Assembly (NCBI GenBank): GCA_023539395.1
Contig: JAKCEX010000001.1
Coordinates: forward strand, 21,193 to 85,192
Reading direction: 5' to 3'
Length of the DNA: 64,000 nt
Origin: Candidatus Geocrenenecus arthurdayi
GTDB taxonomy: Archaea > Thermoproteota > Nitrososphaeria_A > Caldarchaeales > Wolframiiraptoraceae
A program made the position numbers and the translations under genes. Of this stretch, positions 33,549 through 62,475 are shown piece by piece. Position 1 is the stretch's first letter, and each line of letters begins with the position of its first letter. The notes beneath the pieces were generated by a model. The model saw only the letters and a program-made list of their open reading frames with translations, was not told the origin of the DNA and did no database searches.

Positions 33549-33674
33549 TGCGGGGGGTGGGATTCGAACCCACGAACCCCTTCGGGATTCCCCTCTAGAT
33601 GCGTTCAGGGGTTCTCATCCAGTGTGAGGTGGATCCTGAGCCCTGCGCCTTTGACCTGGCTTGGCTACCCCCGC
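33549..33674 (-). tRNA. tRNA-Leu(CAG) with two putative introns (one in the anticodon loop, one in the variable-arm region).
   Basis: 126 nt in total. The acceptor is gcggggg/cccccgc, the D arm is GCC...GGC (Ser/Leu-like) and the anticodon stem is caggg/ccctg with loop ctCAGg. About 22 nt are inserted 3' of the anticodon. A further insert of about 17 nt precedes a cccgaaggg variable-arm hairpin. The exact intron boundaries are not resolved by eye. Confidence 0.5.
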
Positions 33675-35809: not shown

Positions 35810-37174
35810 TTATTCAGCTAGTGGCGGTGTGAAGAATATTCCTCCCCAGAGTAGCCATACTAGGAATAGCGCGAAGACTATGTTTATACATTGAGCGATT
35901 ACATATGCGACGGCGGGTCTACCCCTGCCTATAGCCACTAAGTCTTTGAACCTGGTATCGAGCCCTATACCAACGAATGCCAATGGGAAGAAGACTATGG
36001 TTCTATATTTATCTACTGCTCCCTGCCAGAACTTTACGACGAAGTCGGATTTGGCTTTAGCTAAGGATAATCCTGTTGCTGCTGCAATCGATGAAATGAC
36101 GATTGTTACAAGTATGCTAGCGACTATGAATCCTAGAATGAACTTGGGGAATCTATACCATACCTCCATCGGACTGACACGTTCTTCTGGTTTCTTTTCC
36201 ACTCTGAATACCCAGTAGATAGCTATTATGAATGCTATGAAGCCTATCAAGATATTCTGAGCCATCTTAACGATTGCGGCTACGTCAAGTGCTCGTCCAC
36301 CGAGGAAACCTCCAGCTGCGACTACAGCTGGTGTCGTATCAATTGTTGCACCGATCCATGCTCCTCCAACGTGGAGCCAGTATTTCCCTAATGCTGGAGC
36401 TAGAGCTTTAACAAGGTAAGGTAATCCGATAAGCATTGGTATAGATGTTAATAAGACCATTGAGACCGTGTAGCTTATGTACTTTGGATTTCCTTTAACC
36501 GCTCCCCCGGCAGCTATCGCTGCTGACACTCCACAGATAGATACTCCTGAAGCCATTATGCTTGAGAATTCTCTGTCCAGTCCGAAGCCTCTACAGATAT
36601 AGTATGCAGCATACCATATTACTAGAACGTTGATCACTGCTTGGACTACTGCTAAGCCTCCAGCAACTACAAGGTCTGTAAAGAATATGCCGAGCCCTAA
36701 GATTACGAGACCGGTCTTTATAAAGAACTCTGTCCTTACTGCTGGCTTGAGCCATTTTGGAACACCGACCGTATTGCTGATTAATAGACCAACTATCAAA
36801 GCCCACAATGGGTATTCGAGCCCATAGGCTTTAGCAAAAGGCGTAGCACCGATCATTACCGCTATCCATGCTAGTATGAACACTACTATGTAGCCGGGAA
36901 TGTATTCCTTGACGAACCTTCCCTCGATAGCGCATACACCTATCATTGTTAGAATTAATGTAAAGATGAACACTGCTATCCATCCAAGCCCATGCTCCAC
37001 ATCTATGGCTAGCTTCTCGATTTTCGCATACCATCCCGTCCATGGCTGTAGGAATGGTTGCGCTGTCCACCCAGTTGCTGCTGCAGCTGCTAGACCGATT
37101 AGGATTATTATAAAGCCGACCCAGACCGCCCACCAATCTTCTTTCTTCCATAGACTAGACCAGTCTACAGGCAT
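35810..37174 (-). CDS. YeiH/UPF0324-family membrane protein (putative sulfate or anion exporter family).
   Basis: It matches YeiH across the ASGVSICGVSAAIAAGG region (E. coli AGSSICGAAA) and has about 10 TM helices. The ORF track begins with TTG at 37198, so the likely ATG is at 37174 (MPVDWSS). Confidence 0.6.
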   Translation of the reverse strand: MPVDWSSLWKKEDWWAVWVGFIIILIGLAAAAATGWTAQPFLQPWTGWYAKIEKLAIDVEHGLGWIAVFIFTLILTMIGVCAIEGRFVKEYIPGYIVVFILAWIAVMIGATPFAKAYGLEYPLWALIVGLLISNTVGVPKWLKPAVRTEFFIKTGLVILGLGIFFTDLVVAGGLAVVQAVINVLVIWYAAYYICRGFGLDREFSSIMASGVSICGVSAAIAAGGAVKGNPKYISYTVSMVLLTSIPMLIGLPYLVKALAPALGKYWLHVGGAWIGATIDTTPAVVAAGGFLGGRALDVAAIVKMAQNILIGFIAFIIAIYWVFRVEKKPEERVSPMEVWYRFPKFILGFIVASILVTIVISSIAAATGLSLAKAKSDFVVKFWQGAVDKYRTIVFFPLAFVGIGLDTRFKDLVAIGRGRPAVAYVIAQCINIVFALFLVWLLWGGIFFTPPLAE

Positions 37175-37213
37175 ATAGGTCAAAAGTAAGTAATTCAAGA
37201 AGGTTTATATCCT

Positions 37214-37700: not shown

Positions 37701-38777
37701 GTGAAGTCTATGAATATTTCTAAGGGTACCCTGCAGATAGAGGTTACATCTAGATGTAATGCTTGCTGTCTAATGTGTCCTAAATCATCTATGATTGATG
37801 ATTGGAGTAGTGGAGACTTAGCTCTAGAAGACTATCTTAAGCTTAGAGAATATTTCGAGAAGTTCAAGATCATCTGGCTTCAAGGTTGGGGTGAGCCTCT
37901 CCTATCTAGAGATATCTTCGAGATGGTTAGAGTAGCTTATAGAAATGATGGTATAGTTGGATTAACTACTAATGCTATGCTCCTGATAGAGTCAGTATCA
38001 AGGAAACTGATCGAAAACGGTATCAAGACTATAGCTGTATCTATCGCTGGGGCGAGAGAAGAAACCCATGAATCCATTAGAATAGGTACAAGCTTTAAAA
38101 AGATAATAGAGAACGTAGAATGTCTAGAGCGTTTAAGGAGGAGCATGAATGCTCGGGACTTGAGAATAATCTTTACATTCCTCAGAATGAAGCAGAATAT
38201 AAGAGAGCTTCCAGAAGTAGTTGAACTAGCATCAAGATTGAATGTAGATGAAGTGGTTGGAACAAATCTAGACTATATTCCGAGCAGAAAGCATTATGAG
38301 ATGAAGATCTTCTCTGAGGGGGAAGCTCCAAGAGAGTATACTGAGGTAGTTAGGGAGAGCGAAGAGAAAGCGAAGGAGCTTGGAATATCAATCTATAACT
38401 ACCCATTGGAGATGAGGGAGGTCGCAGTATGTTCTGAGAACCCTATAGAGAATATCTATGTATCACATGATGGTACAGTCTCACCGTGCGTCTACCTGAA
38501 CGTCCCTTTAAGAAAAAACATTATTCCAAGATACTTCAAGAACAAACAATACAATATTCCTAAAACAATATTCGGAAGCATAAGAGTAGAAAAGCTGGAA
38601 GAGATATACAATAAACAAGAATTCTCAAGATTCAGAAATATCTATAAGGAGAGGAGCGATTCTTGGAGAAGTTCAAGAGATCTTATTGGTAGAATACTTA
38701 GTTTTAGCGAGCTAAGCAGTGGCACTCTTCGGCTTCCCGAAGAATGCTATACTTGCTATAAAGCTTATGGTGTATAG
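37701..38777 (+). CDS. Radical SAM enzyme with a Cys-rich C-terminal extension (SPASM/twitch-like).
   Basis: The CxxxCxxC motif lies within TSRCNACCLMCP. The C-terminal cysteines (CSENP, SPCVYL, ECYTCYK) suggest an auxiliary Fe-S cluster. Confidence 0.7.
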   Translation: MKSMNISKGTLQIEVTSRCNACCLMCPKSSMIDDWSSGDLALEDYLKLREYFEKFKIIWLQGWGEPLLSRDIFEMVRVAYRNDGIVGLTTNAMLLIESVSRKLIENGIKTIAVSIAGAREETHESIRIGTSFKKIIENVECLERLRRSMNARDLRIIFTFLRMKQNIRELPEVVELASRLNVDEVVGTNLDYIPSRKHYEMKIFSEGEAPREYTEVVRESEEKAKELGISIYNYPLEMREVAVCSENPIENIYVSHDGTVSPCVYLNVPLRKNIIPRYFKNKQYNIPKTIFGSIRVEKLEEIYNKQEFSRFRNIYKERSDSWRSSRDLIGRILSFSELSSGTLRLPEECYTCYKAYGV

Positions 38778-38781
38778 CCAC

Positions 38782-38967
38782 CTACATCTCAGTTATTGTA
38801 ATCGCGCCTGAAGGGCAAACTGCCTCGCATGACCTACATCCAAGACACTGATCTCCATTTACTGGTACGGCTTTACCTTCTTGTAGCTCGAAGACGGATA
38901 CAGGGCAGATTGTAACACATTCACCGTCTCCAGTGCATTTCTCCCTGTCTACATTTACTATATACAT
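38782..38967 (-). CDS. fdx: 2x[4Fe-4S] ferredoxin.
   Basis: 61 aa with two CxxCxxCxxxCP motifs (CTGDGECVTICP and CLGCRSCEAVCP). Confidence 0.8.
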   Translation of the reverse strand: MYIVNVDREKCTGDGECVTICPVSVFELQEGKAVPVNGDQCLGCRSCEAVCPSGAITITEM

Positions 38968-39084
38968 TTACTTAACACCCAACTAATGATTGGTGCTCCA
39001 TAATTTAACTATAGTTTTTGAAAAAATATTTTTGTTGAATAAGAAAAAGTAAAAAATAGGAGGGAAATATTGTGTAGTGGACGC

Positions 39085-39297
39085 CTATTCTACCGATTCA
39101 GGTAGCTTGATTCTTGTTTCTCCTCCAAATGATACCCATTCTATTCTTCCTTCATTGACGAGCTCATTAACAGCTTTATCTACTACTTTCTTCTCAAGCT
39201 TTAATGCTTTAGCAATATCCCTGCTAGTGACAGACCTCTTTACCTTCTTTAAGTATTCAACTATCTGGTTTTTAATGTCTTCGGTTACCTCGGACAT
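39085..39297 (-). CDS. dsrD: DsrD-like small winged-helix protein.
   Basis: 70 aa. It sits immediately downstream of dsrB. The winged-helix-like region reads VEYLKKVKRSVTSRDIAKAL...VNELVNEGRIEWVSFGG, which is collinear with DsrD (about 75-80 aa). Confidence 0.55.
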   Translation of the reverse strand: MSEVTEDIKNQIVEYLKKVKRSVTSRDIAKALKLEKKVVDKAVNELVNEGRIEWVSFGGETRIKLPESVE

Positions 39298-39317
39298 TCC
39301 GCCTCATAAATTATATG

Positions 39318-40391
39318 CTATCTCCACTTGAAAAGCGTTGTGGTTCGGAAGGTTGGTACAGAGAATATGAAGTCGTCTATATGCTTATCCGTGAATGGTA
39401 TCCCTGTCAGTGTAAAGAATCTCTCCCATCCAATCCTCTTTATCCAATCTCCGATTCTTTCACCCTTCTTTGCATGCTTTATCCAAGTCTCAATTACTTT
39501 CTTAGCTGCTTGAACCGCCTCAGGCCATCTGGGCGGGTTATTTGGTAGATATGGTATGGCAAGCCTTGAGAATTCAGGGGGACCTCCAGCGACAGCGTTT
39601 CCTCCAACCCACATGGATAAGCAATCATACTTTGGATTATGTATGAACATTCCTGGGCATACAGTGTAGCAGTTCCCACAATACATACATCTATCTTCAT
39701 TAACTACGACGGACTTCTTCTCAGGCGCGGGTCTAATAGCTGCGGTTGGACAGCTTGCGACGAGTGTAGGTATCTCACATAGTCTACTGACTATATCGTC
39801 GTTAACTACGGGCGGCTTCCTATGCATTCCAACGAAGGCCAAGTCTGAGCAGTGTACAGCTCCACACATGTTTATGCAGCATGCAATAGCTATCTTAAGC
39901 TTGCCTGGTAAGTCATCTCTAACAAAGTATTCGTATAGCTCGTCATATAGTGCTTTAGCAAGACCAGGCGCATCTATTACAGCTGTATGGCAGTGCACCC
40001 ATCCCTGTGTATGGATTATAGCTTTTAGTGAACGGCCTGTACCTCCAACAGGCCAACCCCTATCCTTTAATTCCTTGAGAAGTGCGTCAAGCTTTTTCTT
40101 ATCTGTGACAATGAACTCTACATTATGTCTACTAGTAAACTTTACATAGCCGTCTGAATACTTGTCTGCAATATCGCATAGCTCTCTAACAAAGTATACG
40201 CTTACGATTTTAGGTATAGCAGCTCTAACCATGTATACTTCCTCACCATTCATTGAGACATGCTTTATCACGCCTGGAGCAACATATTCATGGTATCTCC
40301 ATTTACCATAATTCTTTAAGAGTACGGGATGTACCATCTCTTTGTAGTGTGGTGGACCAATATCTGTAATATACTTCTTCTCTGCCGCCAT
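39318..40391 (-). CDS. dsrB: Dissimilatory sulfite reductase beta subunit.
   Basis: 357 aa. The inserted ferredoxin domain is CMYCGNCYTVCP. The siroheme/Fe-S cysteine cluster is IACCINMCGAVHCSD. It lies 2 nt after dsrA. Confidence 0.8.
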   Translation of the reverse strand: MAAEKKYITDIGPPHYKEMVHPVLLKNYGKWRYHEYVAPGVIKHVSMNGEEVYMVRAAIPKIVSVYFVRELCDIADKYSDGYVKFTSRHNVEFIVTDKKKLDALLKELKDRGWPVGGTGRSLKAIIHTQGWVHCHTAVIDAPGLAKALYDELYEYFVRDDLPGKLKIAIACCINMCGAVHCSDLAFVGMHRKPPVVNDDIVSRLCEIPTLVASCPTAAIRPAPEKKSVVVNEDRCMYCGNCYTVCPGMFIHNPKYDCLSMWVGGNAVAGGPPEFSRLAIPYLPNNPPRWPEAVQAAKKVIETWIKHAKKGERIGDWIKRIGWERFFTLTGIPFTDKHIDDFIFSVPTFRTTTLFKWR

Positions 40392-40393
40392 GC

Positions 40394-41578
40394 TTACTTC
40401 ACCTCCTCCAATTCTTCAGGACTCCAGAAGTAGTATGGATTTGCTCTAGGAACGTAGACCATCTGTGGTACAGGCGGTAAGCCGACAGCCTTTAAGAAAT
40501 TCCTCATACCAAGTCTGTAGACTAATTCACCTATCCTCTCTCTAGTTCTTGCATTTTCATCCCACCAATCAAGTATCTTCCTTATCAGGTTCTTTAACTC
40601 AGTATATGGTTTCTCAGCTTTCATGAATGGTACTATAACCCATCCAAGGAATGCTCCCTGTAATATGGTAGCTTTTCCTCCTAGTAGAATTGTTACACCT
40701 CTGTCATCTCCAGGCAGGATCGCTTTCGGAAGGGCACCTAGACACTTCATGCATCTAGTGCAGTCTTCAGGGATGACTCTCAATTCTTTACCATCCCATT
40801 CAAGAGCCTGTGGTGGGCATCTAGCAGCTACAGCAGCAATATTTACACCCTGTTTTGCATATTCTCTAACAGCATCTTGGTCAATTTTTATTGAGTCTCT
40901 CCAAGTTCCTATTATTGCTAGGTCAGCTCTAGCCAATGCTGCTACACAATCGTTTGGGCAGCCTGAGATCTTAATCTTAAACTTGTATGGGAATCTAGGT
41001 CTATGAATCTCATCTTGAAACTCCATAGTTAATTCATGATAAATGTCTAGCGTATCTATACATGACCATTGGCAGAACGCTGGACCGCCGCAACAGCTTA
41101 AACTTCTGACATCGCTTCCTGAGCCTCCAAGATCGAAGCCTATGGATGTTAATTCTTCGAAACATGGTTGTAGAGCCGCTGTAGTTGCTCCAAGCAGTAT
41201 TATGTCTCCAGTGGAGCCGTGTAGGTTTATGAAGCCTGTTCCATACTTCTCCCAGACATCGCACAGTTTTCTCAGAGCTTTAGTTGAATAGAACCATCCA
41301 GCTGGTTGCGCTACTCTAAGTGTATGGACCTCAGGCGTAGGCATAACATCAGAAGGTAGATCACTATATCTCCCAATAACTCCCCCACCGTATCCTTTAA
41401 CTCCGACTATCCCTCCATGCTTCCAGTGGGTTACCTTCTCTTTATATGACCTCTCAAGCTGTAGTAGGACATTCTTTGCATATGGTTTTACCGCTGCCAT
41501 CCTCTTCATTTCCTTGATGAAGCTTGGCCAAGGACCCTTTTCCAGCTCATCTAGAAGAGGTGTCTCAGACATTTTCAA
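40394..41578 (-). CDS. dsrA: Dissimilatory sulfite reductase alpha subunit.
   Basis: 394 aa. The siroheme-[4Fe-4S] cysteine cluster is LSCCGGPAFCQWSC...CPNDC and the ferredoxin-like segment is CTRCMKC. Confidence 0.8.
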   Translation of the reverse strand: MKMSETPLLDELEKGPWPSFIKEMKRMAAVKPYAKNVLLQLERSYKEKVTHWKHGGIVGVKGYGGGVIGRYSDLPSDVMPTPEVHTLRVAQPAGWFYSTKALRKLCDVWEKYGTGFINLHGSTGDIILLGATTAALQPCFEELTSIGFDLGGSGSDVRSLSCCGGPAFCQWSCIDTLDIYHELTMEFQDEIHRPRFPYKFKIKISGCPNDCVAALARADLAIIGTWRDSIKIDQDAVREYAKQGVNIAAVAARCPPQALEWDGKELRVIPEDCTRCMKCLGALPKAILPGDDRGVTILLGGKATILQGAFLGWVIVPFMKAEKPYTELKNLIRKILDWWDENARTRERIGELVYRLGMRNFLKAVGLPPVPQMVYVPRANPYYFWSPEELEEVK

Positions 41579-41611
41579 CTCAGTATCTTATATTCCGCAG
41601 ACCTATATAAT

Positions 41612-41629
41612 ATTTCACATGGAAAATTT
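41612..41629 (-). promoter_or_regulatory. Conserved TTTyACATGGAAAA element abutting the TATA box of the dsrA promoter.
   Basis: The sequence atttcacatggaaaattt is followed (on the coding strand) by attatatagg and about 25 nt to the dsrA ATG. Confidence 0.45.
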
Positions 41630-41744
41630 CCTGCGATAATATAGTTGTTTATTATTGGGGGTTGAAAAGTTCAAATTAACGCTGTTATATTCATCGCTTA
41701 AGTTTAGACTACTTCATAATTCTTTCTAATATTGTCCCTGACAC

Positions 41745-43139
41745 TTAATAGACCAATGCGTTTGCTAGCACTTCACTTAAGCCTGAAACATTAATGTTTA
41801 GATTATAATAGCTAACCATGTCTAAGAATTGCCTCTTACAGTTTGCACATATTGTTATGAGGGTCGAGGCGGCTGTATCTTTTACTTGTTGCATCTTCAA
41901 CCTACCGTATGTCTTCATTCTAAAGTCTAGGAAATTATATTTACTCATTAATGCAAACCCTCCTCCACCACCACAGCAATAATTATACTCTCTATTGGGG
42001 TACATTTCTCTGAAATCTCTACATGAAGCAACTATAACTCTCCTCGGTTCATCATATATTCCCCCACATCTACCTATCTTGCATGAGTCATGGAAAGTTA
42101 CTGGCTCAGCATTCTTATGCTTATCAAGTTTTAGTTTACCTTCTCTCAAGAATTTGTCATATAGTTCAACTATGTGTATGACTTTAAATGGTCTCTCTTC
42201 AGCTGGTATAAGATCTTTCATAAGATGCCCCAGCACATCGTAAGCATGCCCACATTCCCCGATCACGACATATTCAGGTTTAAGTTTATTAATCGTCTCT
42301 AGATGGGCCCGTATAACTCGGAGCATATCTTTATCGCTGTAGAATAATCCATAGTTAACATTATCGAATACGCCTGTTCTAGGAGAATTGAAAGTCCAAT
42401 CTACATTGACGTAGTTCATTACTTCGACGATCCCTCTAATAGTATCTAGGAAGGATAAGTAGTCTCCAGCATTGTTTATGATGAGATACTTTGCTCCCAC
42501 TTTATCTACTGGGATCTCAATACTGACGTTTTTCCTATTCTCTTCGATTTCTCCTCTAACAAAGTCTAAGATATTCATCAAAGCCTCGTATGATATTTTC
42601 GGAGCACTGCCATACCTTAGCTGATTATCAACACCTTCTTCTTTCAATTCTTCTGGTATGATTCCAAGCTCAGCAAATATTTTCCTCATCTCTCTCATAA
42701 CTAACCCGTTGTCTAGACCGAATGGGCATGCCAAAACGCATCTCCTACATATTGTACAGCGGTACGCAGCTTCAGCCATCGCATTTATATCTTGCTCCGT
42801 GACCTCTTTCGCTCCTACAAGACTTCCAAAGACCTTCCCAGTTAATGTAAAGTACCTCTTATATATCTTCCTGAGCATATCAGCACGATAGACTGGGCTA
42901 TACAACTTATTTCTTCCACTACCAATGTACACTGGGCATGCTTCCGCACATGTACCACAGTGAGTACATGCTTCTAGAGCTAATCTTAGCGGTAGGAGGA
43001 ATGGCCAGTTATTCTTCTTATCTAACAATTCTCTAAATGCTTTTAGAAACTGTTCAGACTTAGGCTCAGTAGGATGTAGCTTACTATCTGAGAGACCTCT
43101 ATATTCATCAAAAACCTTGTATATTTGCTCAATCTTCAC
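41745..43139 (-). CDS. dsrK: DsrK/HdrD-like iron-sulfur protein with a CCG domain.
   Basis: 464 aa. The two ferredoxin motifs are CTHCGTCAEACP and CTICRRCVLACP. The C-terminal CCG domain reads YNYCCGGGGG. Confidence 0.7.
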   Translation of the reverse strand: MKIEQIYKVFDEYRGLSDSKLHPTEPKSEQFLKAFRELLDKKNNWPFLLPLRLALEACTHCGTCAEACPVYIGSGRNKLYSPVYRADMLRKIYKRYFTLTGKVFGSLVGAKEVTEQDINAMAEAAYRCTICRRCVLACPFGLDNGLVMREMRKIFAELGIIPEELKEEGVDNQLRYGSAPKISYEALMNILDFVRGEIEENRKNVSIEIPVDKVGAKYLIINNAGDYLSFLDTIRGIVEVMNYVNVDWTFNSPRTGVFDNVNYGLFYSDKDMLRVIRAHLETINKLKPEYVVIGECGHAYDVLGHLMKDLIPAEERPFKVIHIVELYDKFLREGKLKLDKHKNAEPVTFHDSCKIGRCGGIYDEPRRVIVASCRDFREMYPNREYNYCCGGGGGFALMSKYNFLDFRMKTYGRLKMQQVKDTAASTLITICANCKRQFLDMVSYYNLNINVSGLSEVLANALVY

Positions 43140-43145
43140 AGCATA

Positions 43146-43829
43146 TCACCCCTTGAAATGTCTCTGGTCGAGGATAATCTTTTGCCCATAGAATATTGCA
43201 ATTGGATGTATGAGTGTCTTGAACGGTAGATATATCATGTATATTTGGGCGAAGACGATATGTATTAAGAAGAGTGTGTTAACTGGAGGGGGGATAGGGT
43301 TTAGAGTTAGTATTCCCTGCACCCAAGTCCACAGATGCGTAGATTCAACGACCCTAAACATACGGATATATTGTCCTAGAGATAATGTTATTATTAGAAG
43401 AATTAGTGCGAAATAATCTGCAAAGTAGGAGTCAGCTCTTTTATCAACATATCTTCTGATTATGAAGCCTACTGAACCTATTGCAGCCAGCATGCCTGCA
43501 ATAGTGCCAACTTCATATTCATATGGAAGATGAGGAATGAAAATATATTTAGCGTGAAGCGTGAGACTTACAATTAGCCCTATATGGAACATCCATGCCA
43601 ACGTGAATATGAGTTTGTCGAATTTTCTAGGGCCAGGCAGAGAGAAGATTCTCGTTGCAATAGTAAATAAGATGTTTGCTAAGCTCTTCTTAGCTGGGAA
43701 TATAGCCCACATAATGGGTCTGGGCAGAAAGATCCACTTAAAGAAATTGTATATGACGGCTACGATGAAAACTACTAGTGTAATGTAGGGTAGATAAATA
43801 CCTATAAAAATCGTAAAGTATTCATCCAT
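43146..43829 (-). CDS. dsrM: DsrM/HdrE/NarI-like di-heme b membrane subunit.
   Basis: 227 aa with 5 predicted TM helices and conserved His residues in the helices. It lies 6 nt upstream of dsrK. Confidence 0.65.
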   Translation of the reverse strand: MDEYFTIFIGIYLPYITLVVFIVAVIYNFFKWIFLPRPIMWAIFPAKKSLANILFTIATRIFSLPGPRKFDKLIFTLAWMFHIGLIVSLTLHAKYIFIPHLPYEYEVGTIAGMLAAIGSVGFIIRRYVDKRADSYFADYFALILLIITLSLGQYIRMFRVVESTHLWTWVQGILTLNPIPPPVNTLFLIHIVFAQIYMIYLPFKTLIHPIAIFYGQKIILDQRHFKG

Positions 43830-44068
43830 CCCAAAAACACCTATCTTGCTATTTCTTCTGTAATTCTATTTTACTCTTTAATATTTTAATATTTAAGAAT
43901 CCCTTAAAACCGTGTATATGACATCGTTTTATAATTTAACTTTTACACCATTACTTATCTAGATATGATGTATTTGCAGAGATTGAGGCATCATAGAAGC
44001 TTGCGATGAGCTTCTCTATCAAGTGCTATCTCGATTTGCACCTATGGATGACTCCTAGAGCTTCAGGC

Positions 44069-46341: not shown

Positions 46342-46689
46342 CTATCTATAGCTAAAGATTCTAAGGTCATCTCTCACAATTATGCCGATAGTGTCTGCCT
46401 CAACAGCTATAGGATCTCCCTTCTCTCTTAGTCTCCTAAACTCGTCTATCCTTAAGGGTATGACCTCAACTCCAGGTGGTGGGTCTATGTGCTTAAGCCT
46501 TTCTATGGGATTGCCTAGAAAATAATCTGAGATTAACAATACGTCAACATCACTCCATACATTAAAATCGCCTCTTGCATAAGACCCGATGATAACCGCA
46601 GTGACGGTAAACTGCATACCCTTCACCCATCTTCTTACTGCTTCGATTACTTTCTCCTTCTGCTTCATTCTTTCCTTAATGACTTCCAT
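46342..46689 (-). CDS. Minimal nucleotidyltransferase (MNT), Pol-beta superfamily.
   Basis: 115 aa. The GS...D.D motif is GSYARGDFNVWSDVDVLLIS. Confidence 0.65.
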   Translation of the reverse strand: MEVIKERMKQKEKVIEAVRRWVKGMQFTVTAVIIGSYARGDFNVWSDVDVLLISDYFLGNPIERLKHIDPPPGVEVIPLRIDEFRRLREKGDPIAVEADTIGIIVRDDLRIFSYR

Positions 46690-54973: not shown

Positions 54974-56287
54974 GTGAGACCTTTATCTATAGTTGATGAT
55001 GGTATGTCTTTGAATGCTATTCATGGTCTCCTCTTAAACCATAAGCTGCTACCTATATCTAGGCTTGAGAAGTTTTTCTTTAGAGACTTGGAATTAGCGC
55101 TTAGACTATTTAAGAATGTTGGTGGTGTTGAAGGTGTAGCTATACTCCAGACATGCAATAGGGTGGAAGTATATCTTGATCTAAGAAGTGAGGAAGCAGT
55201 AGAGGAGGTAGTAGGTATCTGGAGAGATTTAACCGAAGACATGGATGTTGAGAGGAATATCCTATTGGTTAGGGGGGCCGAGGTGGTTAAGCATCTATTC
55301 AGGCTGGCTTCCGGTCTTGAATCAATGGTTATAGGTGAGCAGGAGATTCTACGTCAAGTAAAAGAAGCATACTACAAAGCATTAGCTGTTAACAGTCTAT
55401 CTCTACTACTTAAGATGATATTCGAGGAAGCTATCAGGATCGGTAAGAAGGTTAGGTCTGAGACGGAGATAAGTAGGAAGAGGATGAGCCTAGCCCATGT
55501 CGCCGTCGAATTAGTTGAGAAAATACTCAAGAACATGGATGACAAGGTAATCCTCATAATAGGTGCTGGGGAGACAGGCGAGCTAGTAAACTCTGCATTA
55601 ATGGAGAAAAACTACAGGAAGCTCACCTTGCTATTCGCTAATAGAACCTATGAGAGGGCTATCCATCTAGCTAACATGAGCGGAGGGATAGCTCTAAGAC
55701 TAGACCAGGTTGAAAACTATCTAAGAATAGCAGATATAGTATTCGTGACGACTTCCGCACCTCACTACATTATAACTAAAGAGAGGGTAGCGGAAGCGAT
55801 CAAAGGGAGAGATAAGCCCCTCCTGGTAATCGACTTATCTGTTCCTAGAAACGTCGACCCTGAAGTCTCAAGACTGCAAAACCTAAAACTCATAACAATA
55901 GACGACCTTAAAGAACACATCGACCACTCAATCTATGATAAGATTAAGGAATTAGATAAGGTAGAAGCATTAATCGAAGAGTACGTGGAGAAGTTCCAGG
56001 AGAAGCTAGAAACAATATGGATTGAAGAACTAGTCTCCAAGATCTACAGTTATGCAGAGAAGGTTAGATTAGAAGAAGTTTTAGAAGCAATGTCTATGAT
56101 CAAGACTGTTAAGCTTGATGAGAGAAGCAGAGAAATAATAGAAGACATGTCCCGAGCAATAGTCAAGAGAATACTAAACCCATTAATAGAAAACCTTAGA
56201 AGAAACTACAAAAATGTAAATAAAGTAGACCTAAGCAGCCTGTTAAGAATATATATTGAAGAAAGAGATTTTGATAAAAACGGATAA
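54974..56287 (+). CDS. hemA: Glutamyl-tRNA reductase.
   Basis: 437 aa. The catalytic Cys region is ILQTCNRVEVY and the NADPH site is IIGAGETGE. Confidence 0.8.
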   Translation: MRPLSIVDDGMSLNAIHGLLLNHKLLPISRLEKFFFRDLELALRLFKNVGGVEGVAILQTCNRVEVYLDLRSEEAVEEVVGIWRDLTEDMDVERNILLVRGAEVVKHLFRLASGLESMVIGEQEILRQVKEAYYKALAVNSLSLLLKMIFEEAIRIGKKVRSETEISRKRMSLAHVAVELVEKILKNMDDKVILIIGAGETGELVNSALMEKNYRKLTLLFANRTYERAIHLANMSGGIALRLDQVENYLRIADIVFVTTSAPHYIITKERVAEAIKGRDKPLLVIDLSVPRNVDPEVSRLQNLKLITIDDLKEHIDHSIYDKIKELDKVEALIEEYVEKFQEKLETIWIEELVSKIYSYAEKVRLEEVLEAMSMIKTVKLDERSREIIEDMSRAIVKRILNPLIENLRRNYKNVNKVDLSSLLRIYIEERDFDKNG

Positions 56288-56779: not shown

Positions 56780-57484
56780 GTGGTTGGATTGAGTCACACT
56801 GAACGTGGTGAGAAGACAGTATCTCAAGAAAGGAGGACAGCGCTAAAAATAATTACATCTATCTCATTTATTGTAAGTCTTGGTAGTCTAGCTTCACTCT
56901 TAAAATCTATTAGCCCAGTTGTTTTAGAGATCCCTGAGTGGCCACGTGTAAGGTTAGCTAATATTAATGGGATCAAGCTTAGAACATGGTATCTATTTTC
57001 TTATCCAACAAAAGATATTCCATGCCTATTAGTGAAGACGGGTAAAAGTCTTCCTTCAGGGGTAGGCCCAGATAGAGATATAATCGCATATGTTATGATA
57101 TGCCAGCATGCCAGATACTATGGTACAATCTACATCCCACCCAAAGAAGTTAGAGACCCAGAAAAACTTACATATTTGAAGACTGTCCCACCAAACATCC
57201 TGGAACTATACCCGGACAAGAATTTGCTCTATTGCCCAGCTCATGCTGGAATCTACGACCTTGAGAAAGACGGCGAAGTACTTGCAGGACCACCTTTCTG
57301 TAGCCTATGTAAGGTCGTACTTGAATATGATGAGGCTTCAGGAGACATTTATGCTGTTGGTCTTTCCCCGCCAGCCCCGGCTGTACCGGGAGTTACGCAC
57401 TGTTCCAACAATCCTGAAGAACTAAAGAGGATTATGCTTGGAAAAAAGCTTGTGACGGAGGCGTCTCTAGAAGAGAAGATCTAG
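56780..57484 (+). CDS. Rieske-type [2Fe-2S] protein with a Tat signal and membrane anchor.
   Basis: GTG start. The twin-arginine motif is ERRTALKI, followed by a TM helix. Box I is CQH and box II is CPAHAGIYD...GPP. The box II context (CPxHGxYDxxGxxxxGP) is strongly Rieske-like, but both disulfide-forming Cys are replaced. The spacer between boxes is unusually long, about 40 aa. Confidence 0.55.
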   Translation: MVGLSHTERGEKTVSQERRTALKIITSISFIVSLGSLASLLKSISPVVLEIPEWPRVRLANINGIKLRTWYLFSYPTKDIPCLLVKTGKSLPSGVGPDRDIIAYVMICQHARYYGTIYIPPKEVRDPEKLTYLKTVPPNILELYPDKNLLYCPAHAGIYDLEKDGEVLAGPPFCSLCKVVLEYDEASGDIYAVGLSPPAPAVPGVTHCSNNPEELKRIMLGKKLVTEASLEEKI

Positions 57485-58978
57485 GTGATCAAGTTGAGTG
57501 AGAGAAAGAGCATCATCAGTAGGTTCACGGAATGGCTTGACGAGAATTTTGGTTTTACAAAGACTATTCTCCGCCCCGCCCCTGAGTATTCTCTTAGGAA
57601 CCCCTCCTACTGGTTGGGTGCTATAAATGTTATAGCTTTCTTCACGGCGGGTATTACAGGGATAATACTCCTCCAATACTATGAACCCCATCCTGATACT
57701 GCATGGGAGTCTGTAAGTAGGATAATTACAGAAGTTCCTTATGGAAACCTCATCAGAAACATACATATTTACGCAGCTTTTTCCATGATATTCGTTACAT
57801 TCCTACATTTTATGAGGAATTATTTTGTCGTTGCTTATAGGAGGCCTAGAGAGTTGATGTGGATTATAGGTATGCTTATGGGTTTAGCTACTTTAATGAT
57901 GGGGTTTACGGGTTACCTCCTCCCATGGTATGCTCTCTCATATGCAGCTGTAGGATTCGGGATAACAATAATAAAGCAACTGCCCCAGCCATTAAGCGGC
58001 TTCCTTGAATACGTTATCTCAGGATACGGAACAGATGTAGAACTTCTGAGAAGATTCTACACATTCCATACAGTCCTGCTACCTGCTGTAATCATTATCT
58101 TGCTAGCTGTAAAACTACACATATTCGAAGTCCATGGAATAACGGAGCCCCTATCCAAGGACATCCCAGAAGAAGAAAAGAAGCTTATCCCATGGTTTCC
58201 AAACATATTTCTATACTTTGTAATCTTGGTCTGCGTCTATATTGCATCAATACTTACAGCATCGATAATATACCCATTCGGGATACATGAGAAATATATT
58301 CCTGGCGTTGTCACTATACCTATGCCTGAATGGTATTTTATGTGGACGTATGCGATAGCTAAGACGGAGTTCATAGAGGTGCTCGGCGCGACAGGCTTCA
58401 AGATCTTTATAGCAACCCTCATAATCATAACATTGATCTTCGTATTCCTACCATTCATAGATAGATGGAAAGATAAGCATCCTTCTCAGAGACCCTTCTT
58501 CATAGCTATAGGGGTTTGGATAGTAGTCCAGATAAGCTTGATGACTTATCTAGCGTGGGCAACGGCAGGCTCATATATACCTTCAGATACAGCCATTCTC
58601 TCAATAGTTATCCCAACGATAATAGTATTCATAGCTGCCTACCTATATCGATTAAAGCTGGTAAAGCCGCCTGAACTAGTATGGGAGAAGTTTAGTAAAC
58701 TGAAACAAACAAAGCTAGAGAAAACCTCTGGTAATCCTAGAGAATCCATCTTGGTGGCCATAAAATTCTTATTAACTATAATGTGTGCAGGTTTATCATT
58801 TAGGATTATCTATGGGTCCTTAAGTGAAAACTTAAGCTTCGGATGGTTTATACTTGGCTTAGCTTTCTTCGCCTTCTCTACTATAGAATCATTTAAAGTA
58901 GTTTATGTTGCAGACTTGAAGGTTGGAAACGTGGGGAGAAGATTGAGGTCTTTTGAGAGGTGGTTTGGAGTTGGCTAG
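57485..58978 (+). CDS. Cytochrome b of a Rieske/cyt b complex (cyt b6 plus a subunit-IV-like fusion).
   Basis: 497 aa, GTG start directly after the Rieske stop. The His pair 13 residues apart (NIHIYAAFSMIFVTFLHF) is typical of cyt b helix B. Further His residues sit in helix D. There are about 10-12 TM helices. Confidence 0.7.
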   Translation: MIKLSERKSIISRFTEWLDENFGFTKTILRPAPEYSLRNPSYWLGAINVIAFFTAGITGIILLQYYEPHPDTAWESVSRIITEVPYGNLIRNIHIYAAFSMIFVTFLHFMRNYFVVAYRRPRELMWIIGMLMGLATLMMGFTGYLLPWYALSYAAVGFGITIIKQLPQPLSGFLEYVISGYGTDVELLRRFYTFHTVLLPAVIIILLAVKLHIFEVHGITEPLSKDIPEEEKKLIPWFPNIFLYFVILVCVYIASILTASIIYPFGIHEKYIPGVVTIPMPEWYFMWTYAIAKTEFIEVLGATGFKIFIATLIIITLIFVFLPFIDRWKDKHPSQRPFFIAIGVWIVVQISLMTYLAWATAGSYIPSDTAILSIVIPTIIVFIAAYLYRLKLVKPPELVWEKFSKLKQTKLEKTSGNPRESILVAIKFLLTIMCAGLSFRIIYGSLSENLSFGWFILGLAFFAFSTIESFKVVYVADLKVGNVGRRLRSFERWFGVG

Positions 58979-59234
58979 AAGTATCGAGATTGCTCTAGTC
59001 ATCCTACTTTTAGTTCAAGGTGTATTGACTGTTTTAACATGGATGCTAAACCCAATAATAGTAACTCATCAGACTCTCGCAGCTGGATATATTGCTTCAA
59101 GCTTAATCATCCTAAGCCTAATAACTTACGTCTACTATAGAGGTGAAGAGTATGACCAGGAGTGGATAGCAGCCGGTATTGGGATGATAGTCCTAATACT
59201 ATTACTTACATATCTTAAGGGAGGTGTCGTGTAG
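58953..59234 (+). CDS. Small membrane protein (about 3 TM helices), possibly an accessory subunit.
   Basis: 93 aa and hydrophobic. It overlaps the cyt b 3' end. The next gene starts 1 nt after it. Confidence 0.3.
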   Translation: MRGGLELARSIEIALVILLLVQGVLTVLTWMLNPIIVTHQTLAAGYIASSLIILSLITYVYYRGEEYDQEWIAAGIGMIVLILLLTYLKGGVV

Positions 59235-60044
59235 GTGGACCCATTGATCTTCATCATAGGCTATATAACTCCATACATAGCATTCTTCACATTGATTTTA
59301 GGCTTGATGTATAGAGTGGTGAGATGGCTTTCAATACCAGTTCCATTCAGGCTCCCGGTTGCTCCTGCACCTATAACGTATACAGGAGTATTGAAGGGGA
59401 TGTCGTTGGACTTCTTTGCATTTAGAAGCTTACTAAAAGGTAATAAGAAGCTCTGGATAGGTGGATACGTCTTCCACGTAGCTCTAGCTATAACCTTAAT
59501 CTCTCACATAATCAATGTATACTTCCATGAGCTCTGGGCAGTCATCGGGTATGGATGGTATGAGGCGGTGCTATATTCGGGGATATTCTTCCTAGCTGCA
59601 TTATCTTTCCTCCTAGTTAGAAGAATAGTTCTTCCAAATGTGAGATATATCTCAAAGTTAAGTGATTACATTATCTTAATACTTTTGATTACAATAGTAT
59701 TCCTGGGAGTTTACATGAGAAGTTTTGGATTAGTGGATGTAGCCTCCGTAAGTGAATATATGCATAGTCTCCTAATGTTCAACCCTATCCCGCCGCCGGG
59801 TAACATATGGTTCTTAACACATTATGTTTTAGCCCAGATACTGTTTATTTACATACCATTCAGTAAAGTATCTCACTTAATCGGGTGGATCCTAGCGACT
59901 ACTAGGAATATGAGGAATATAACTAGGTGGAGGAGACATGTAAACCCATGGGATTACCCAGTTGAAGTAATTACTTGGGATGAATATTACCAGAAGTTTA
60001 AAGATGAGCTAGAAGCAATCGGACCAGGAGGTGAGAGAAGATGA
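59235..60044 (+). CDS. DsrM/HdrE/NarI-like membrane subunit (second paralog).
   Basis: 269 aa, GTG start. It is collinear with the dsrM-like protein at 43146..43829 (the N-termini read IFIIGYITPYIAFFTLILGLMYRVVRWL versus IFIGIYLPYITLVVFIVAVIYNFFKWI). His residues sit in the TM helices. Confidence 0.6.
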   Translation: MDPLIFIIGYITPYIAFFTLILGLMYRVVRWLSIPVPFRLPVAPAPITYTGVLKGMSLDFFAFRSLLKGNKKLWIGGYVFHVALAITLISHIINVYFHELWAVIGYGWYEAVLYSGIFFLAALSFLLVRRIVLPNVRYISKLSDYIILILLITIVFLGVYMRSFGLVDVASVSEYMHSLLMFNPIPPPGNIWFLTHYVLAQILFIYIPFSKVSHLIGWILATTRNMRNITRWRRHVNPWDYPVEVITWDEYYQKFKDELEAIGPGGERR

Positions 60045-61507
60045 AGATAGATATGAGTTTCCCTGCAAGGAAGTATAAACTCTATGCTACGTGGAAACGC
60101 GATATGGAGATTATGAAGCTACCCTTCCCAAGAGAGTGGAGTCATACACAGTTTAATCTACCACCCAATTGGAGGGAAATAGCTTTAAAGAAGATGGATG
60201 AAGTGGTAAAGAAGTTTAGGTCTGTTAAGCTCTTCCTAGATATATGCGTAAAATGTGGAGCATGCACAGATAAATGTCCATTCTTCCTCGGCACATTAGA
60301 CCCCAACAATATGCCGGTTGCAAGACAAGACCTATTCAGATCAGTCTATAAGAGATACTTTACGTTAACTGGCAGGGTCTTCAGGGGGCTTGTTGGAGCA
60401 GAAGAACTTACAGAGGAAACAGTAGAGCTTTGGTATACCTATTTCTATCAATGTTCTCAATGTAGAAGATGCTCCGTCTTCTGCCCCTATGGTATAGATA
60501 CTGCGGAGATAATGATTGCCGCTAGAGAAGTGCTTACAGCAATAGGTCTCAGCCCAAGGTCGCTTACTGAAGCAATAGCTAAATGTGAAACCATAGGAAA
60601 CCACATGGGCATACCTCCAGCAGCTTTACTCAGTGCCATACAATTCGCAGAAGAAGAAATAAAAGAAGAGACAGGAATAGAAGTTAAGGTACCGATAAAC
60701 AAGAAGGGTGCAGAGATACTCTATGTTCCGCCTTCTGCGGACTTCTTTGGGGGACCCCACTGGGGGACGCTTAAAGGAGCTATAAAGATGTTCCATCAGA
60801 TCGGGTTAGACTATACAATAAGCACTTATGCAAGTGAAGGTGGTAATTTTGGTACATGGCTTGGATATGAGCATATGAAGAAGATAAATAAGAAGCTTGT
60901 TGAAGAAGCTAGGAGGCTTGGTGTTAAATGGATACTTGGTGGAGAATGCGGACATATGTGGAGGGTTATCCACGCTTTCATGGATACTATGAATGGACCA
61001 CTAGATTTCTTGGAAGAACCTGTCTCACCTATAACTGGTACAAAGTTTGAGCATGCAGCATCTACCAAGATGGTTCATATCTGCGAGTTTACAGCAGACT
61101 TGATAAAACATGGAAAACTTAAGTTAAACCCGGATGCAAATAATCAGTACATTGTTACATATCATGATTCATGTAATCCGGCCAGGGTTATGGGGCTTAT
61201 AGAGGAACCCAGATACATACTAAAGAATGTATGCAGGAATTACGTAGAGCTTGACCCGAATGTAAACAGAGAGAAAACTATATGCTGTTGTGCAGGTGGG
61301 GGGTTACTTGCAGATGAGACAATTGAATTAAGACTTAAAGCTATTAGACCAAAGATCGAAGCTATAAAGAGGACTGGTGCAAACTTCTTGGCATGCATAT
61401 GCGCGATAGATAAAGCAGCATTCACTGAATATTTTGAGCATTACAAACTACCCATAACAGTTGGAGGAGTTCATGAACTAGTTGGAAACGCATTAGTGTT
61501 TGATTAA
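60041..61507 (+). CDS. DsrK/HdrD-like CCG-domain iron-sulfur protein (second paralog).
   Basis: 488 aa. The ferredoxin motifs are CVKCGACTDKCP and CSQCRRCSVFCP, and the CCG domain reads ICCCAGGGL. Its start overlaps the upstream stop (ATGA). Confidence 0.7.
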   Translation: MKIDMSFPARKYKLYATWKRDMEIMKLPFPREWSHTQFNLPPNWREIALKKMDEVVKKFRSVKLFLDICVKCGACTDKCPFFLGTLDPNNMPVARQDLFRSVYKRYFTLTGRVFRGLVGAEELTEETVELWYTYFYQCSQCRRCSVFCPYGIDTAEIMIAAREVLTAIGLSPRSLTEAIAKCETIGNHMGIPPAALLSAIQFAEEEIKEETGIEVKVPINKKGAEILYVPPSADFFGGPHWGTLKGAIKMFHQIGLDYTISTYASEGGNFGTWLGYEHMKKINKKLVEEARRLGVKWILGGECGHMWRVIHAFMDTMNGPLDFLEEPVSPITGTKFEHAASTKMVHICEFTADLIKHGKLKLNPDANNQYIVTYHDSCNPARVMGLIEEPRYILKNVCRNYVELDPNVNREKTICCCAGGGLLADETIELRLKAIRPKIEAIKRTGANFLACICAIDKAAFTEYFEHYKLPITVGGVHELVGNALVFD

Positions 61508-61656: not shown

Positions 61657-62475
61657 TTGATGAATTTAATCTTGGAACCATATATCCCTGAGCAGATAAT
61701 AGACTATTTTCAGTCTATTTCCAATTTAACAGCCAGATTATTGGGACGTTATCTTGTATATATAGGTAGGAGAACAATCGTAATCGTAGGATATCCAGTT
61801 AGTGGAGAATATAGAGAAGAAGACATTGTTAAGATAGTTCAAGAGAGTCTACAAGGGGGGATGGAAGACATAATAGTTATAGCCCCAAGACTACCTCCAT
61901 GTTTAAGATTTGAAGAAGTTAGAATAGATGACTATTATAGATTGACTCTTCCTGTAAAGGAAGTAGGTAAGAAATTGAGATACATGATTTCCAGAGCGTC
62001 TAGAGAGCTAACAGTAGAAGTTGATAAGAAATTAACGAAGTCTCATAAAAGAATTATGATGGATTTTCTAAAGAGACCGGATGTTGAAAAATACATGGAG
62101 TATGTCTGTAGCCGCTTAGACTACTATCTTTCCAGGTCTAATACTGTTAGGACTATCAATGCATTTAGAAAAGATGGTGGATTAGCAGGTTTCAATGTAA
62201 TCGACCTCCCTTCAGGCGATTATTCTTTCTATATGTTTAATTTCATAGATAGAACCGAAGGGTATGTCCCTGGGGTTTCCGATCTCCTATTATATAATTC
62301 TCTGAGAATCTCATATGATGAAGGGAAGAGATATGTTAACATGGGGCTTGGGATAAATGAGGGTACGAAGAGATTTAAGATAAAATGGGGGGCTACACCA
62401 TTCTTACCATATCAATATGGGGTGATAAAACAAGCTAGTATATATGAAGCGTTCGATATATTCTCAAAGCTTTAG
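61657..62475 (+). CDS. Hypothetical protein, possibly a GNAT-fold FemAB/BioF2-like acyltransferase.
   Basis: 272 aa with a weak resemblance to FemAB-type folds (KRFKIKWGA near the C-terminus). Confidence is low. Confidence 0.3.
   Translation: MMNLILEPYIPEQIIDYFQSISNLTARLLGRYLVYIGRRTIVIVGYPVSGEYREEDIVKIVQESLQGGMEDIIVIAPRLPPCLRFEEVRIDDYYRLTLPVKEVGKKLRYMISRASRELTVEVDKKLTKSHKRIMMDFLKRPDVEKYMEYVCSRLDYYLSRSNTVRTINAFRKDGGLAGFNVIDLPSGDYSFYMFNFIDRTEGYVPGVSDLLLYNSLRISYDEGKRYVNMGLGINEGTKRFKIKWGATPFLPYQYGVIKQASIYEAFDIFSKL

Follow-up and report, generated by a model that had tools for sequence, protein, structure and literature searches.

Dissimilatory sulfite reductase genes (dsrAB) have been reported repeatedly from the archaeal lineage considered here (Mueller 2015, PMC4351914; Hua 2018, PMC6053391; Diao 2023, PMC10591310; Neukirchen 2023, PMC10504309). 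Hua et al. found dsrAB in JZ bin_15 and argued for a transfer from Firmicutes (PMC6053391), a result that Diao et al. did not reproduce for Wolframiiraptoraceae and Korarchaeaceae (PMC10591310), and Neukirchen et al. placed these archaeal sequences in a basal position within the bacterial reductive clade (PMC10504309). For Geocrenenecus, Table S1 of Diao et al. lists dsrA, dsrB, dsrC, dsrD, dsrK, and dsrM and gives 0 for sat, aprAB, qmoAB, dsrJOP, dsrEFH, and dsrL (PMC10591310). Here, we describe the dsr genes in a 64,000-nucleotide stretch of contig JAKCEX010000001.1 (the window; positions are counted from its first letter). The dsrAB locus is not new; with it, a lineage in which archaeal sulfite reduction was known before gains a further species-level genome. 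The most interesting result, and the one feature that deserves specialist attention, is a Rieske/cytochrome b module linked to dsrC.

Six minus-strand open reading frames (ORFs) at positions 38782-43829 encode a DsrM-like protein, a DsrK-like protein, DsrA, DsrB, DsrD, and a 2x[4Fe-4S] ferredoxin. An earlier sequence-only reading of this DNA had listed the same six ORFs, and all of them are present at exactly the positions given. It had also called the locus complete and the arrangement possibly undescribed, and on both counts it went too far. The Dsr island spans about 35.8 to 62.5 kb of the window, far beyond 38782-43829, and that segment contains neither the canonical DsrMK pair nor dsrC, dsrN, or the genes for siroheme; dsrAB genes of the same lineage were published in 2015, 2018, and 2023. 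To the six genes the island adds the siroheme pathway, dsrN, and an operon of the order dsrC-Rieske-cytochrome b-small membrane protein-dsrM-dsrK; dsrN and the genes for siroheme are interspersed among the other dsr genes. Around dsrAB, the order is M1-K1-dsrA-dsrB-dsrD-ferredoxin (M1 and K1 being the first of two DsrM and DsrK paralogs), followed by a radical SAM gene and a YeiH gene.

The gene order of the island is kept in five related loci (L001 to L005). In the Geocrenenecus dsr loci (single-amplified genome JGI 0000106-J15, JZ bin_15, G. huangii, and G. dongiae), the order from M1 through YeiH is the same as in the window, and DsrA and DsrB are 91-93% and 92-95% identical to the window proteins, respectively. 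The window DNA is 79-86% (about 85%) identical to a contig of Candidatus Geocrenenecus sp. JGI 0000106-J15 (L003), with synteny over about 25.6-51.3 kb, i.e., 25 kb. Because of this nucleotide identity and synteny, and of the 87-93% identity of DsrA to G. huangii, G. dongiae, and related Caldarchaeales metagenome-assembled genomes (MAGs), we assign the host to a Geocrenenecus-like archaeon of the Wolframiiraptoraceae (the former Aigarchaeota group 5 [PMC9246946]) in the Caldarchaeales, formerly “Aigarchaeota.” The window belongs to a separate species-level genome; its DsrA reaches at most 93% identity to that of any other locus. The same contig is also contained in a Logan assembly of run SRR17752279.

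The two reductase genes are adjacent minus-strand paralogs, 2 nt apart. dsrA (40394-41578) encodes the alpha subunit of 394 amino acids (aa), or 392 aa from the start that the gene caller places two codons later, and dsrB (39318-40391) encodes the beta subunit of 357 aa. DsrA scores 537 bits on NCBIfam TIGR02064 (E=3e-161; equivalog cut-off, 393) and DsrB scores 488 bits on TIGR02066 (equivalog cut-off, 341). The best solved relative of DsrA is that of Archaeoglobus fulgidus (3mm5_A, 544 bits), and the motifs CGGPAFC and CPNDC can be read from the sequence. DsrB aligns over its full length with A. fulgidus DsrB (3mm5_B, 461 bits) and keeps every cluster cysteine; the motifs HCHT, ACCxNMCG, CEIP..CPT, and CMYCGNCYTxCP are conserved residue by residue. 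The lengths that had been read from the sequence before, and the cysteines of the siroheme-[4Fe-4S] site and of the ferredoxin insert, are thus borne out.

DsrA phylogeny was inferred from a neighbor-joining tree of named representatives rooted on the paralog DsrB, with 200 bootstraps; the 50%-clustered search that supplied them yielded few full-length representatives and no named oxidative-type DsrA. The window DsrA joins the bacterial reductive superclade in 200/200 bootstraps. Its identity to the bacterial reductive type is 56-69%, compared with about 33% to the classical archaeal type of Thermocladium and Pyrobaculum and to Thermoplasmatota. We therefore class DsrAB as the reductive bacterial type, in agreement with PMC4351914 and PMC10504309; such a placement had been proposed as a check in the sequence-only reading. 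Within the superclade, an archaeal subclade (Caldarchaeales, Ca. Methanodesulfokora, and one MAG each of Bathyarchaeia and Thermoprotei) is found in 186/200 bootstraps, and the same archaeal split appears in 100/100 in a larger DsrA+B tree. Bacterial monophyly within the superclade reaches only 44/200 bootstraps, so the direction of the DsrAB transfer is not fixed, which parallels the disagreement in the literature. The additional dsrAB genome bears on whether “bacterial-type” DsrAB moved from bacteria to archaea or the reverse.

A Nitrososphaerales MAG contig (L078, positions 4245-6772 and 6944-8924) carries DsrA and DsrB that are 93-94% identical to those of the window, together with an upstream DsrM/K pair that is only 24% and 39% identical (M has 316 aa). 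In this contig, the match to dsrA is about 155 nucleotides too long. Either the membrane module has been swapped, or the contig is chimeric or broken.

On the plus strand, dsrC (56418-56738) begins 12.6 kb from the six-ORF locus and lies directly upstream of a Rieske-like gene, much as had been noted before (13 kb, in a Rieske operon). DsrC, the predicted sulfur-carrier substrate of DsrAB and DsrK, scores 131 bits on PF04358 and 130 bits on TIGR03342. Its C-terminus, ...GACKVAGLPKPTGCV, holds both cysteines in the spacing C-x10-C-V, the second being penultimate, and is almost the same as DACRIAGLPKPTGCV, the peptide that PMC10861901 gives for A. fulgidus. We classify it as a functional-type DsrC and not as TusE/RspA.

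The gene that follows (56780..57484, plus strand) encodes a divergent Rieske [2Fe-2S] protein with a twin-arginine signal (RRTALK) and a membrane anchor. It reaches 14.2 bits on Pfam PF00355, below the gathering score of 20.3, and its ligands C108, H110, C152, and H155 are invariant in 12 homologs. An AlphaFold2 model (pLDDT, 73.5) matches the Rieske subunit of arsenite oxidase (AioB) with a TM score of 0.77 and a probability of 1.0, and it also matches Sulfolobus SoxF. The protein is 38-40% identical to the canonical CQHLGC/CPCH Rieske proteins of three related archaeal dsr loci (L006, L079, and L082). The motifs read CQHARY...CPAHAG, and both disulfide cysteines are missing from all Caldarchaeales homologs; the Caldarchaeales protein has also acquired an insertion of 21 aa and, at the C-terminus, an extension in which the cysteines C174 and C208 are conserved. 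None of thirteen close homologs has a precomputed Pfam domain, and the two that carry an NCBI name are both called “hypothetical protein.”

Cytochrome b (57485..58978, plus strand; 497 aa; PF00033, PF13631, and PF00032) begins immediately behind the stop codon of the Rieske gene and conserves the PEWY motif of the Qo site and the heme histidines. It is followed by a small two-helix membrane protein of 93 aa (58953..59234, plus strand), a conserved accessory subunit of the archaeal Rieske/cytochrome b family; every dsr-linked locus has an ORF of 86-93 aa after cytochrome b, as do L084, L087, and L088, which are not dsr loci. Spacing between the genes for Rieske, cytochrome b, the small protein, dsrM, and dsrK is 0, -26, 0, and -4 nt, and similarly tight in L006, L085, and L086.

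A contiguous dsrC-Rieske-cytochrome b-small ORF module is present in each of the nine archaeal loci from this DsrAB clade in which the region is covered (the window, L001, L004, L006, L079, L082, L083, L085, and L086). These loci span Caldarchaeales, Korarchaeia, Thermoprotei, and unbinned contigs and share only 35-46% protein identity. In six of the nine, dsrMK of the type with an Asp cluster ligand (Asp type; see below) follows the module directly, with gaps or overlaps of 0-6 nt; in the Thermoprotei loci L079, L082, and L083, dsrAB stands between dsrMK and the Rieske/cytochrome b genes. What looks like a compact arrangement occurs in L085 and L086, where the order is sirC, dsrN, dsrC, Rieske, cytochrome b, small ORF, dsrM, dsrK, (CGGC), and another dsrM and dsrK; in L085, a ferredoxin gene and then dsrA come next. 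The module was found in none of about 70 bacterial dsr loci. There, a dsrK of the same type is followed by an ORF for a DsrJ-like tri-heme protein in 31 of about 35 loci, and cytochrome b is never upstream; a DsrJ-like ORF (at least three CXXCH motifs) was sought after the corresponding archaeal dsrK in the window, L006, L079, L085, and L086 and not found. More distant relatives of the cytochrome b, at 38-41% identity, have other partners (an EB_dh-type heme protein or a heme-copper oxidase operon [L088]), and one is without an identifiable partner. No description of a link between dsr genes and Rieske/cytochrome b was found in the searchable literature, which left out McKay 2019 (Korarchaeota dsr) and yielded only papers on cable bacteria and unrelated ones.

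Each of the two DsrMK pairs had been mentioned in the sequence-only reading, the first as dsrM/dsrK before dsrAB and the second as an HdrED-like set. Both pairs exist, with the roles reversed. The plus-strand pair closing the dsrC operon is the canonical one. M2 (59235..60044), a di-heme membrane subunit whose best family is NF038037 (DsrM; 167 bits), keeps all four heme histidines and, like bacterial DsrM, has a cytoplasmic tail at the C-terminus, reads SHIIN where bacterial DsrM reads FRHLRFF, and is without the extra N-terminal helix, periplasmic loops, Arg pair, and insertion in transmembrane helix 3 (TMH3) of DsrMKJOP-type DsrM. K2 (60041..61507), the putative catalytic DsrC-trisulfide reductase subunit, scores 604 bits on NF045796 (DsrK; cut-off, 400). 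It has the motif GECGH, one CCG motif (CCCAGGG), and CAID, so that the last cluster ligand is Asp, and it is 70-77% identical to the DsrK proteins of L006, L079, L082, L085, and L086 and 53-58% identical to bacterial DsrK of dsrMKJ(OP) loci.

The minus-strand pair before dsrAB is DsrMK-like, as claimed, and divergent. M1 (43146-43829) is a short NarI-like di-heme membrane subunit of 227 aa (PF02665, 45 bits) that scores only 36 bits on NF038037; it has four heme histidines (H-x9-H and H-x17-H) and is without the C-terminal tail of DsrM. K1 (41745-43139; 464 aa) also has NF045796 as its best family, with 312 bits, which is below the cut-off of 400; its motifs are GECGH, YCCGGGGG, and CANC, with Cys as the last cluster ligand. 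The 95 DsrK-like genes of the fetched loci fall into two separate groups of 40 and 55 sequences. K1 groups with the 55-sequence clade, which includes the second DsrK-like gene of Syntrophales loci; these loci have both types, in the order dsrC, K1-like gene, and then dsrM and dsrK. The split into two types matches the “basal DsrMK-only clade” of Neukirchen 2023 (PMC10504309).

The class of each DsrK was called by motif criteria taken from published work. GECGH holds the catalytic cysteine of DsrK, the CCG motif binds a single noncubane cluster (Barbosa et al. 2024, PMC10861901), and in A. fulgidus the catalytic DsrK has Asp as this ligand (Asp500; PMC10861901), while the Cys state belongs to paralogs in dsrMK arrangements. 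We thus read M2/K2 as the canonical DsrMK and M1/K1 as a divergent, Cys-type, DsrMK-only paralog, perhaps with a parallel or back-up role. A search of the PDB set, which is without the A. fulgidus DsrMKJOP structure, returned nothing for K2 and only a CCG-domain reductase for K1. Occlusion of the quinol site in DsrMKJOP-type DsrM is ascribed to the Arg pair together with the TMH3 insertion (Yin et al. 2026, bioRxiv 10.64898/2026.08.25.746951); M2 as such an occluded DsrM requiring an external donor was considered and rejected, as the Arg pair and the insertions are missing. Table S1 of Diao 2023 counts one dsrK and one dsrM for Geocrenenecus, and the loci of the lineage show two pairs. Probably one pair, most likely the divergent one, falls below the thresholds of the hidden Markov models (HMMs) used in surveys.

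The remaining two genes of the six-ORF locus also stand as they had been described. The 70-aa winged-helix protein encoded by dsrD (39085-39297, minus strand, 20 nt after dsrB) scores 28.0 bits on PF08679 (gathering score, 24.2) and shares 37-51% identity with the ORFs that immediately follow dsrB in at least 20 bacterial and archaeal loci, of which it is the positional ortholog. A profile of these post-dsrB ORFs matches Desulfovibrio vulgaris DsvD (1ucr) over its full length, weakly (E=0.018), and matches Z-alpha domains too; a PDB search with the single sequence yielded no DsrD, only designed repeats and winged-helix proteins. The motif is EWVSFGGETR here, compared with YWSSGSTT in Desulfobacterota (PMC8794893). 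DsrD has been described as an activator of DsrAB (PMC8794893), and the protein of the window is a putative allosteric activator. The 61-aa ferredoxin after dsrD (38782-38967, minus strand) has two Fer4 motifs and is kept in all Caldarchaeales loci at 75-98% identity, and other ferredoxins flank dsrA in L082, L083, and L085; we regard it as a candidate electron donor to DsrAB.

The island most likely encodes a sulfite-respiration (reductive Dsr) system of this hot-spring archaeon, and its substrate would be sulfite, possibly thiosulfate, and not sulfate. Gene identities, motifs, clade placement, and gene order come from this analysis, and the reaction scheme follows A. fulgidus and Desulfovibrio biochemistry. 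Siroheme would be made locally by HemA, HemL, HemB, HemC, HemD, CobA, and SirC and amidated by DsrN. DsrAB, activated by DsrD, would reduce sulfite with DsrC to the DsrC-trisulfide, with the adjacent ferredoxin probably giving two of the six electrons. On the cytoplasmic side, the Asp-type DsrK (K2) would then reduce the trisulfide to sulfide; electrons from menaquinol would reach it through the two hemes of DsrM (M2), and release of the quinol protons outside would contribute to the proton-motive force. The co-transcribed Rieske/cytochrome b may serve as the quinol-oxidizing entry module in place of the bacterial DsrJOP.

The reductive direction had been proposed earlier on the strength of DsrD and of absent genes, and it agrees with what we find: DsrD, DsrC, and a DsrMK-type module are present, and none of dsrJOP, dsrEFH, dsrL, sat, aprAB, and qmo is among the ORFs scanned across the window. 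The earlier suggestion to look for sat, aprAB, qmo, and dsrJOP in the rest of the genome is answered for the window itself and, by proxy, through the zeros listed for congeneric genomes (Diao 2023 Table S1).

For the Rieske/cytochrome b genes, we tentatively suggest that they are part of the Dsr electron-transfer chain in one archaeal DsrAB clade (Caldarchaeales, Korarchaeia, some Thermoprotei, and Bathyarchaeia-related contigs), being co-transcribed with dsrC and mostly also with Asp-type dsrMK, and that the 86-93 aa protein is the third subunit. Such a complex would oxidize menaquinol at the outward Qo site and pass electrons through the Rieske cluster to the outer DsrM heme, as a functional alternative to DsrJOP, possibly with extra charge translocation of the Q-cycle type or with quinol-based bifurcation. 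The basis for an entry module of this kind is the conserved, tightly coupled gene order and the dichotomy between JOP and Rieske.

That the enzyme is instead an assimilatory, Asr-type, or detoxifying sulfite reductase with no part in respiration is very hard to credit. AsrC and F420-dependent sulfite reductase are weakly similar, as is expected within the superfamily, and the 41-43 bits on the AsrC model TIGR02912 (cut-off, 324), against 537 and 488 bits on the DsrA and DsrB models, rule out an Asr or assimilatory identity; DsrC, DsrD, DsrK, and DsrM are all present besides. A stronger case, though still an improbable one, can be made for oxidative or two-way use (sulfide or sulfur oxidation, or disproportionation), in which DsrC-bound sulfur would be oxidized by DsrAB and electrons would flow from DsrK/DsrM through quinone and Rieske/cytochrome b to a terminal oxidase. 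It is the main rival. Complexes of the bc type mostly deliver electrons to high-potential acceptors, and oxidases were reported for the dsrAB-bearing relative (Hua 2018). dsrC is co-transcribed with a Rieske/cytochrome b having an intact PEWY Qo site, and the nearest non-dsr relatives of the cytochrome b adjoin heme-copper oxidase genes (L088). Several further points weigh against sulfite respiration as outlined above. The direction is not certain from sequence; DsrD-bearing reductive-type systems are known to run in reverse in some bacteria. A Rieske/cytochrome b complex normally passes electrons to an acceptor of higher potential. All trees were built by neighbor joining only, and support for the lack of a sulfate pathway in the rest of the genome is by proxy, from congeneric genomes. 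M2, open and NarI-like without the Arg pair and loop, may oxidize quinol alone, so that Rieske/cytochrome b would not be needed. Heme-copper oxidases were reported from all Aigarchaeota bins but two, so that the dsrAB-bearing JZ bin_15 would be among those with oxidases (Hua 2018, PMC6053391), and Rieske/cytochrome b together with oxidases agrees no less well with oxidative or facultative use. However, dsrD is present, dsrEFH and dsrL were found neither in the window nor in congeneric genomes, DsrAB falls in the reductive superclade, no oxidase gene is in the window, and Ca. Methanodesulfokora, an mcr-bearing anaerobe according to the literature, has this module too.

A different doubt touches only the coupling of Rieske/cytochrome b to Dsr; it is compatible with sulfite respiration and is weighed apart from the two alternatives above. 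Rieske/cytochrome b could be an ordinary, independent complex III that stands beside dsrC by chance, with plain DsrABC plus DsrMK working as in Gram-positive sulfate reducers. We take this as a serious possibility, only somewhat short of evenly balanced: M2 looks quinol accessible and NarI-like, DsrMK alone is thought to be sufficient in many organisms, and the three Thermoprotei loci have dsrAB between dsrMK and Rieske/cytochrome b. Chance adjacency has to be set against a module that stays contiguous in all nine loci at such low protein identity, with dsrMK tightly next to it in six. It also has to be set against the more distant cytochrome b relatives, which have no dsr neighbors, and against bacterial DsrK of the same type, which is so regularly followed by dsrJ and never preceded by cytochrome b.

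If the tentative coupling to Dsr is true, the module would represent a third architecture of terminal sulfite/trisulfide reductase beside DsrMK and DsrMKJOP, and a bc-type complex would, unusually, serve an anaerobic respiration at low potential. Two points are left open by the structural preprint of 2026 on DsrMKJOP, namely how JOP is of benefit compared with plain DsrMK and what the donors to DsrM are without OP; the same type of DsrK with Rieske/cytochrome b instead of JOP is a natural comparison for both questions. In addition, automated surveys may undercount the Caldarchaeales Rieske proteins, which are called “hypothetical,” and the divergent DsrMK, which falls below HMM cut-offs.

The siroheme genes lie between the two dsr parts. 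On the minus strand are hemD (44069-44842; PF02602) and the gene for uroporphyrinogen-III C-methyltransferase, cobA (44827-45567; PF00590; NF004790 at 311 bits), which together account for the first siroheme steps, followed by hemC (47124-48059; PF01379), hemL (48049-49329; PF00202), and hemB (50312-51340; PF00490). The plus strand carries a sirC/Met8-like precorrin-2 dehydrogenase gene (51478-52236; TIGR01470 at 73 bits), a CbiA-family amidase gene (52220-53611; TIGR00379 at 481 bits) that overlaps it by 17 nt, and the glutamyl-tRNA reductase gene hemA (54974..56287; PF05201, PF01488, and PF00745). The CbiA-family gene is our dsrN candidate, being the positional ortholog of the bacterial post-dsrD CbiA gene (34-43% identity) and of the middle gene in the sirC-cbiA-dsrC order of L085 and L086. 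The heme-gene block varies among relatives, L001 and L004 being without hemD, hemC, hemL, and hemB at this place. In the window, a HEPN plus minimal nucleotidyltransferase pair (46342-47045, minus strand), which is toxin-antitoxin-like, is inserted between cobA and hemC, and a 139-aa ORF with no significant family match (49819-50238, plus strand) is situated between hemL and hemB, at a site where a 136-aa gene is called on the Logan contig.

Three more genes form a conserved, unnamed dsr-associated set. A radical SAM/SPASM protein (PF04055 plus PF13186) is encoded at 37701..38777 on the plus strand, divergently from the ferredoxin gene; its best NCBIfam models, TIGR04311 and TIGR04317, give about 155 bits, below the cut-off, and homologs occur near dsrA or dsrC in L001 to L006, L083, and eight bacterial loci. 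The YeiH-family membrane protein (35810..37198, minus strand; PF03601 at 143 bits) is a candidate transporter that may have a role in sulfite or sulfide traffic, and its homologs adjoin dsrA or dsrC not only in Caldarchaeales and Thermoprotei but also in several loci of bacteria. A 272-aa ORF (61657..62475, plus strand) has no Pfam or NCBIfam match, and tblastn finds it at 28-39% identity in L008, L025, L048, L053, L056, L061, L072, and L076. The three recur together beside dsrA in several bacterial loci, and the YeiH and radical SAM genes also recur in archaeal dsr clusters (L006, L082, and L083). In related archaeal dsr clusters, a KaiC-like ATPase gene and a TusA-like gene precede the YeiH and dsrC genes, and a CGGC-domain gene is found among the dsrMK and dsrAB genes (L082, positions 2747-3996 and 11780-12148; L083, positions 1479-2750 and 12955-13338; L085, positions 8508-8897). 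These three kinds of genes are not beside the dsr genes of the window, where a KaiC-like gene is present at 7396-8139.

The remaining genes of the window are housekeeping genes (shikimate pathway, aspartate kinase, GMP synthase, and similar). The AT-rich, TACK-like host with intron-rich tRNAs that had been read from the letters agrees with a GC content of 36-41% and with the finding that, of six tRNA genes detected with Rfam, three are overlong (90-126 nt) and intron bearing (3841-3944, 33254-33343, and 33549-33674, all on the minus strand); ARAGORN missed two of the three and did not name the third. TATA-like boxes are seen in the AT-rich intergenic regions 41579-41744, 43830-44068, and 56288-56417, upstream of dsrA, the DsrM paralog M1, and dsrC, an example being ATTATATA about 40 nt before the dsrA ATG. 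They suggest at least three separate transcription units. A scan for sigma-70 promoters and terminators gave counts not above those of shuffled sequence; such a scan is irrelevant to an archaeal host.

The closest known systems include the congeneric ones. The parts of the published Geocrenenecus accounts that were available cover dsrAB, dsrC, and Hdr/Mvh and mention neither two DsrMK types nor a Rieske/cytochrome b link. They also include Ca. Methanodesulfokora (Methanodesulfokores) washburnensis of the Korarchaeia and the Thermoprotei or unbinned hot-spring contigs (L006, L079, L082, L083, L085, and L086), which belong to the same DsrAB subclade at 72-73% DsrA identity and share with the window the module of dsrC, Rieske, cytochrome b, and the 86-aa protein as well as an Asp-type DsrK. 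In these loci, the module stands directly upstream of dsrAB in one cluster, whereas in the window the two parts are split by the siroheme genes and lie on opposite strands. The korarchaeal and Thermoprotei Rieske proteins keep the canonical CQHLGC/CPCH motifs, unlike that of the window, and a DsrD homolog, present in the window, was not detected in L006 and L079 by tblastn.

DsrMKJOP of A. fulgidus and Desulfovibrio shares with K2 the GECGH motif, the single CCG motif, and the Asp ligand, and with M2 the four heme histidines and the C-terminal tail; DsrC's C-terminal arm is identical. The window differs in having no DsrJ, DsrO, or DsrP and in an M2 that does without the extra helix, loops, Arg pair, and TMH3 insertion. 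Rieske/cytochrome b is encoded where bacteria have JOP, though upstream of DsrMK and not downstream. M1/K1 resembles the DsrMK-only systems (Gram-positive sulfate reducers, the “basal DsrMK clade” of Neukirchen, and DsrM-1 of Yin et al. 2026) in being a NarI-like plus HdrD-like pair with a Cys-type CCG protein and no JOP, a clade that is also found as an extra copy in Syntrophales with dsrMKJ(OP). Identity to its nearest relatives outside Caldarchaeales is 36-41%, and M1, with 227 aa, is unusually short. Finally, the oxidase-linked archaeal Rieske/cytochrome b (Sulfolobus SoxF/SoxL type; L088) is built from the same unit of a Rieske protein, a long PEWY cytochrome b, and a membrane protein of 86-88 aa. 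The Caldarchaeales Rieske protein departs from that type in the lost disulfide cysteines, the insertion and extension, and the score below the Pfam threshold, and the partners differ as well: the oxidase-linked unit is joined to COX genes, whereas that of the window is joined to dsrC and dsrMK.

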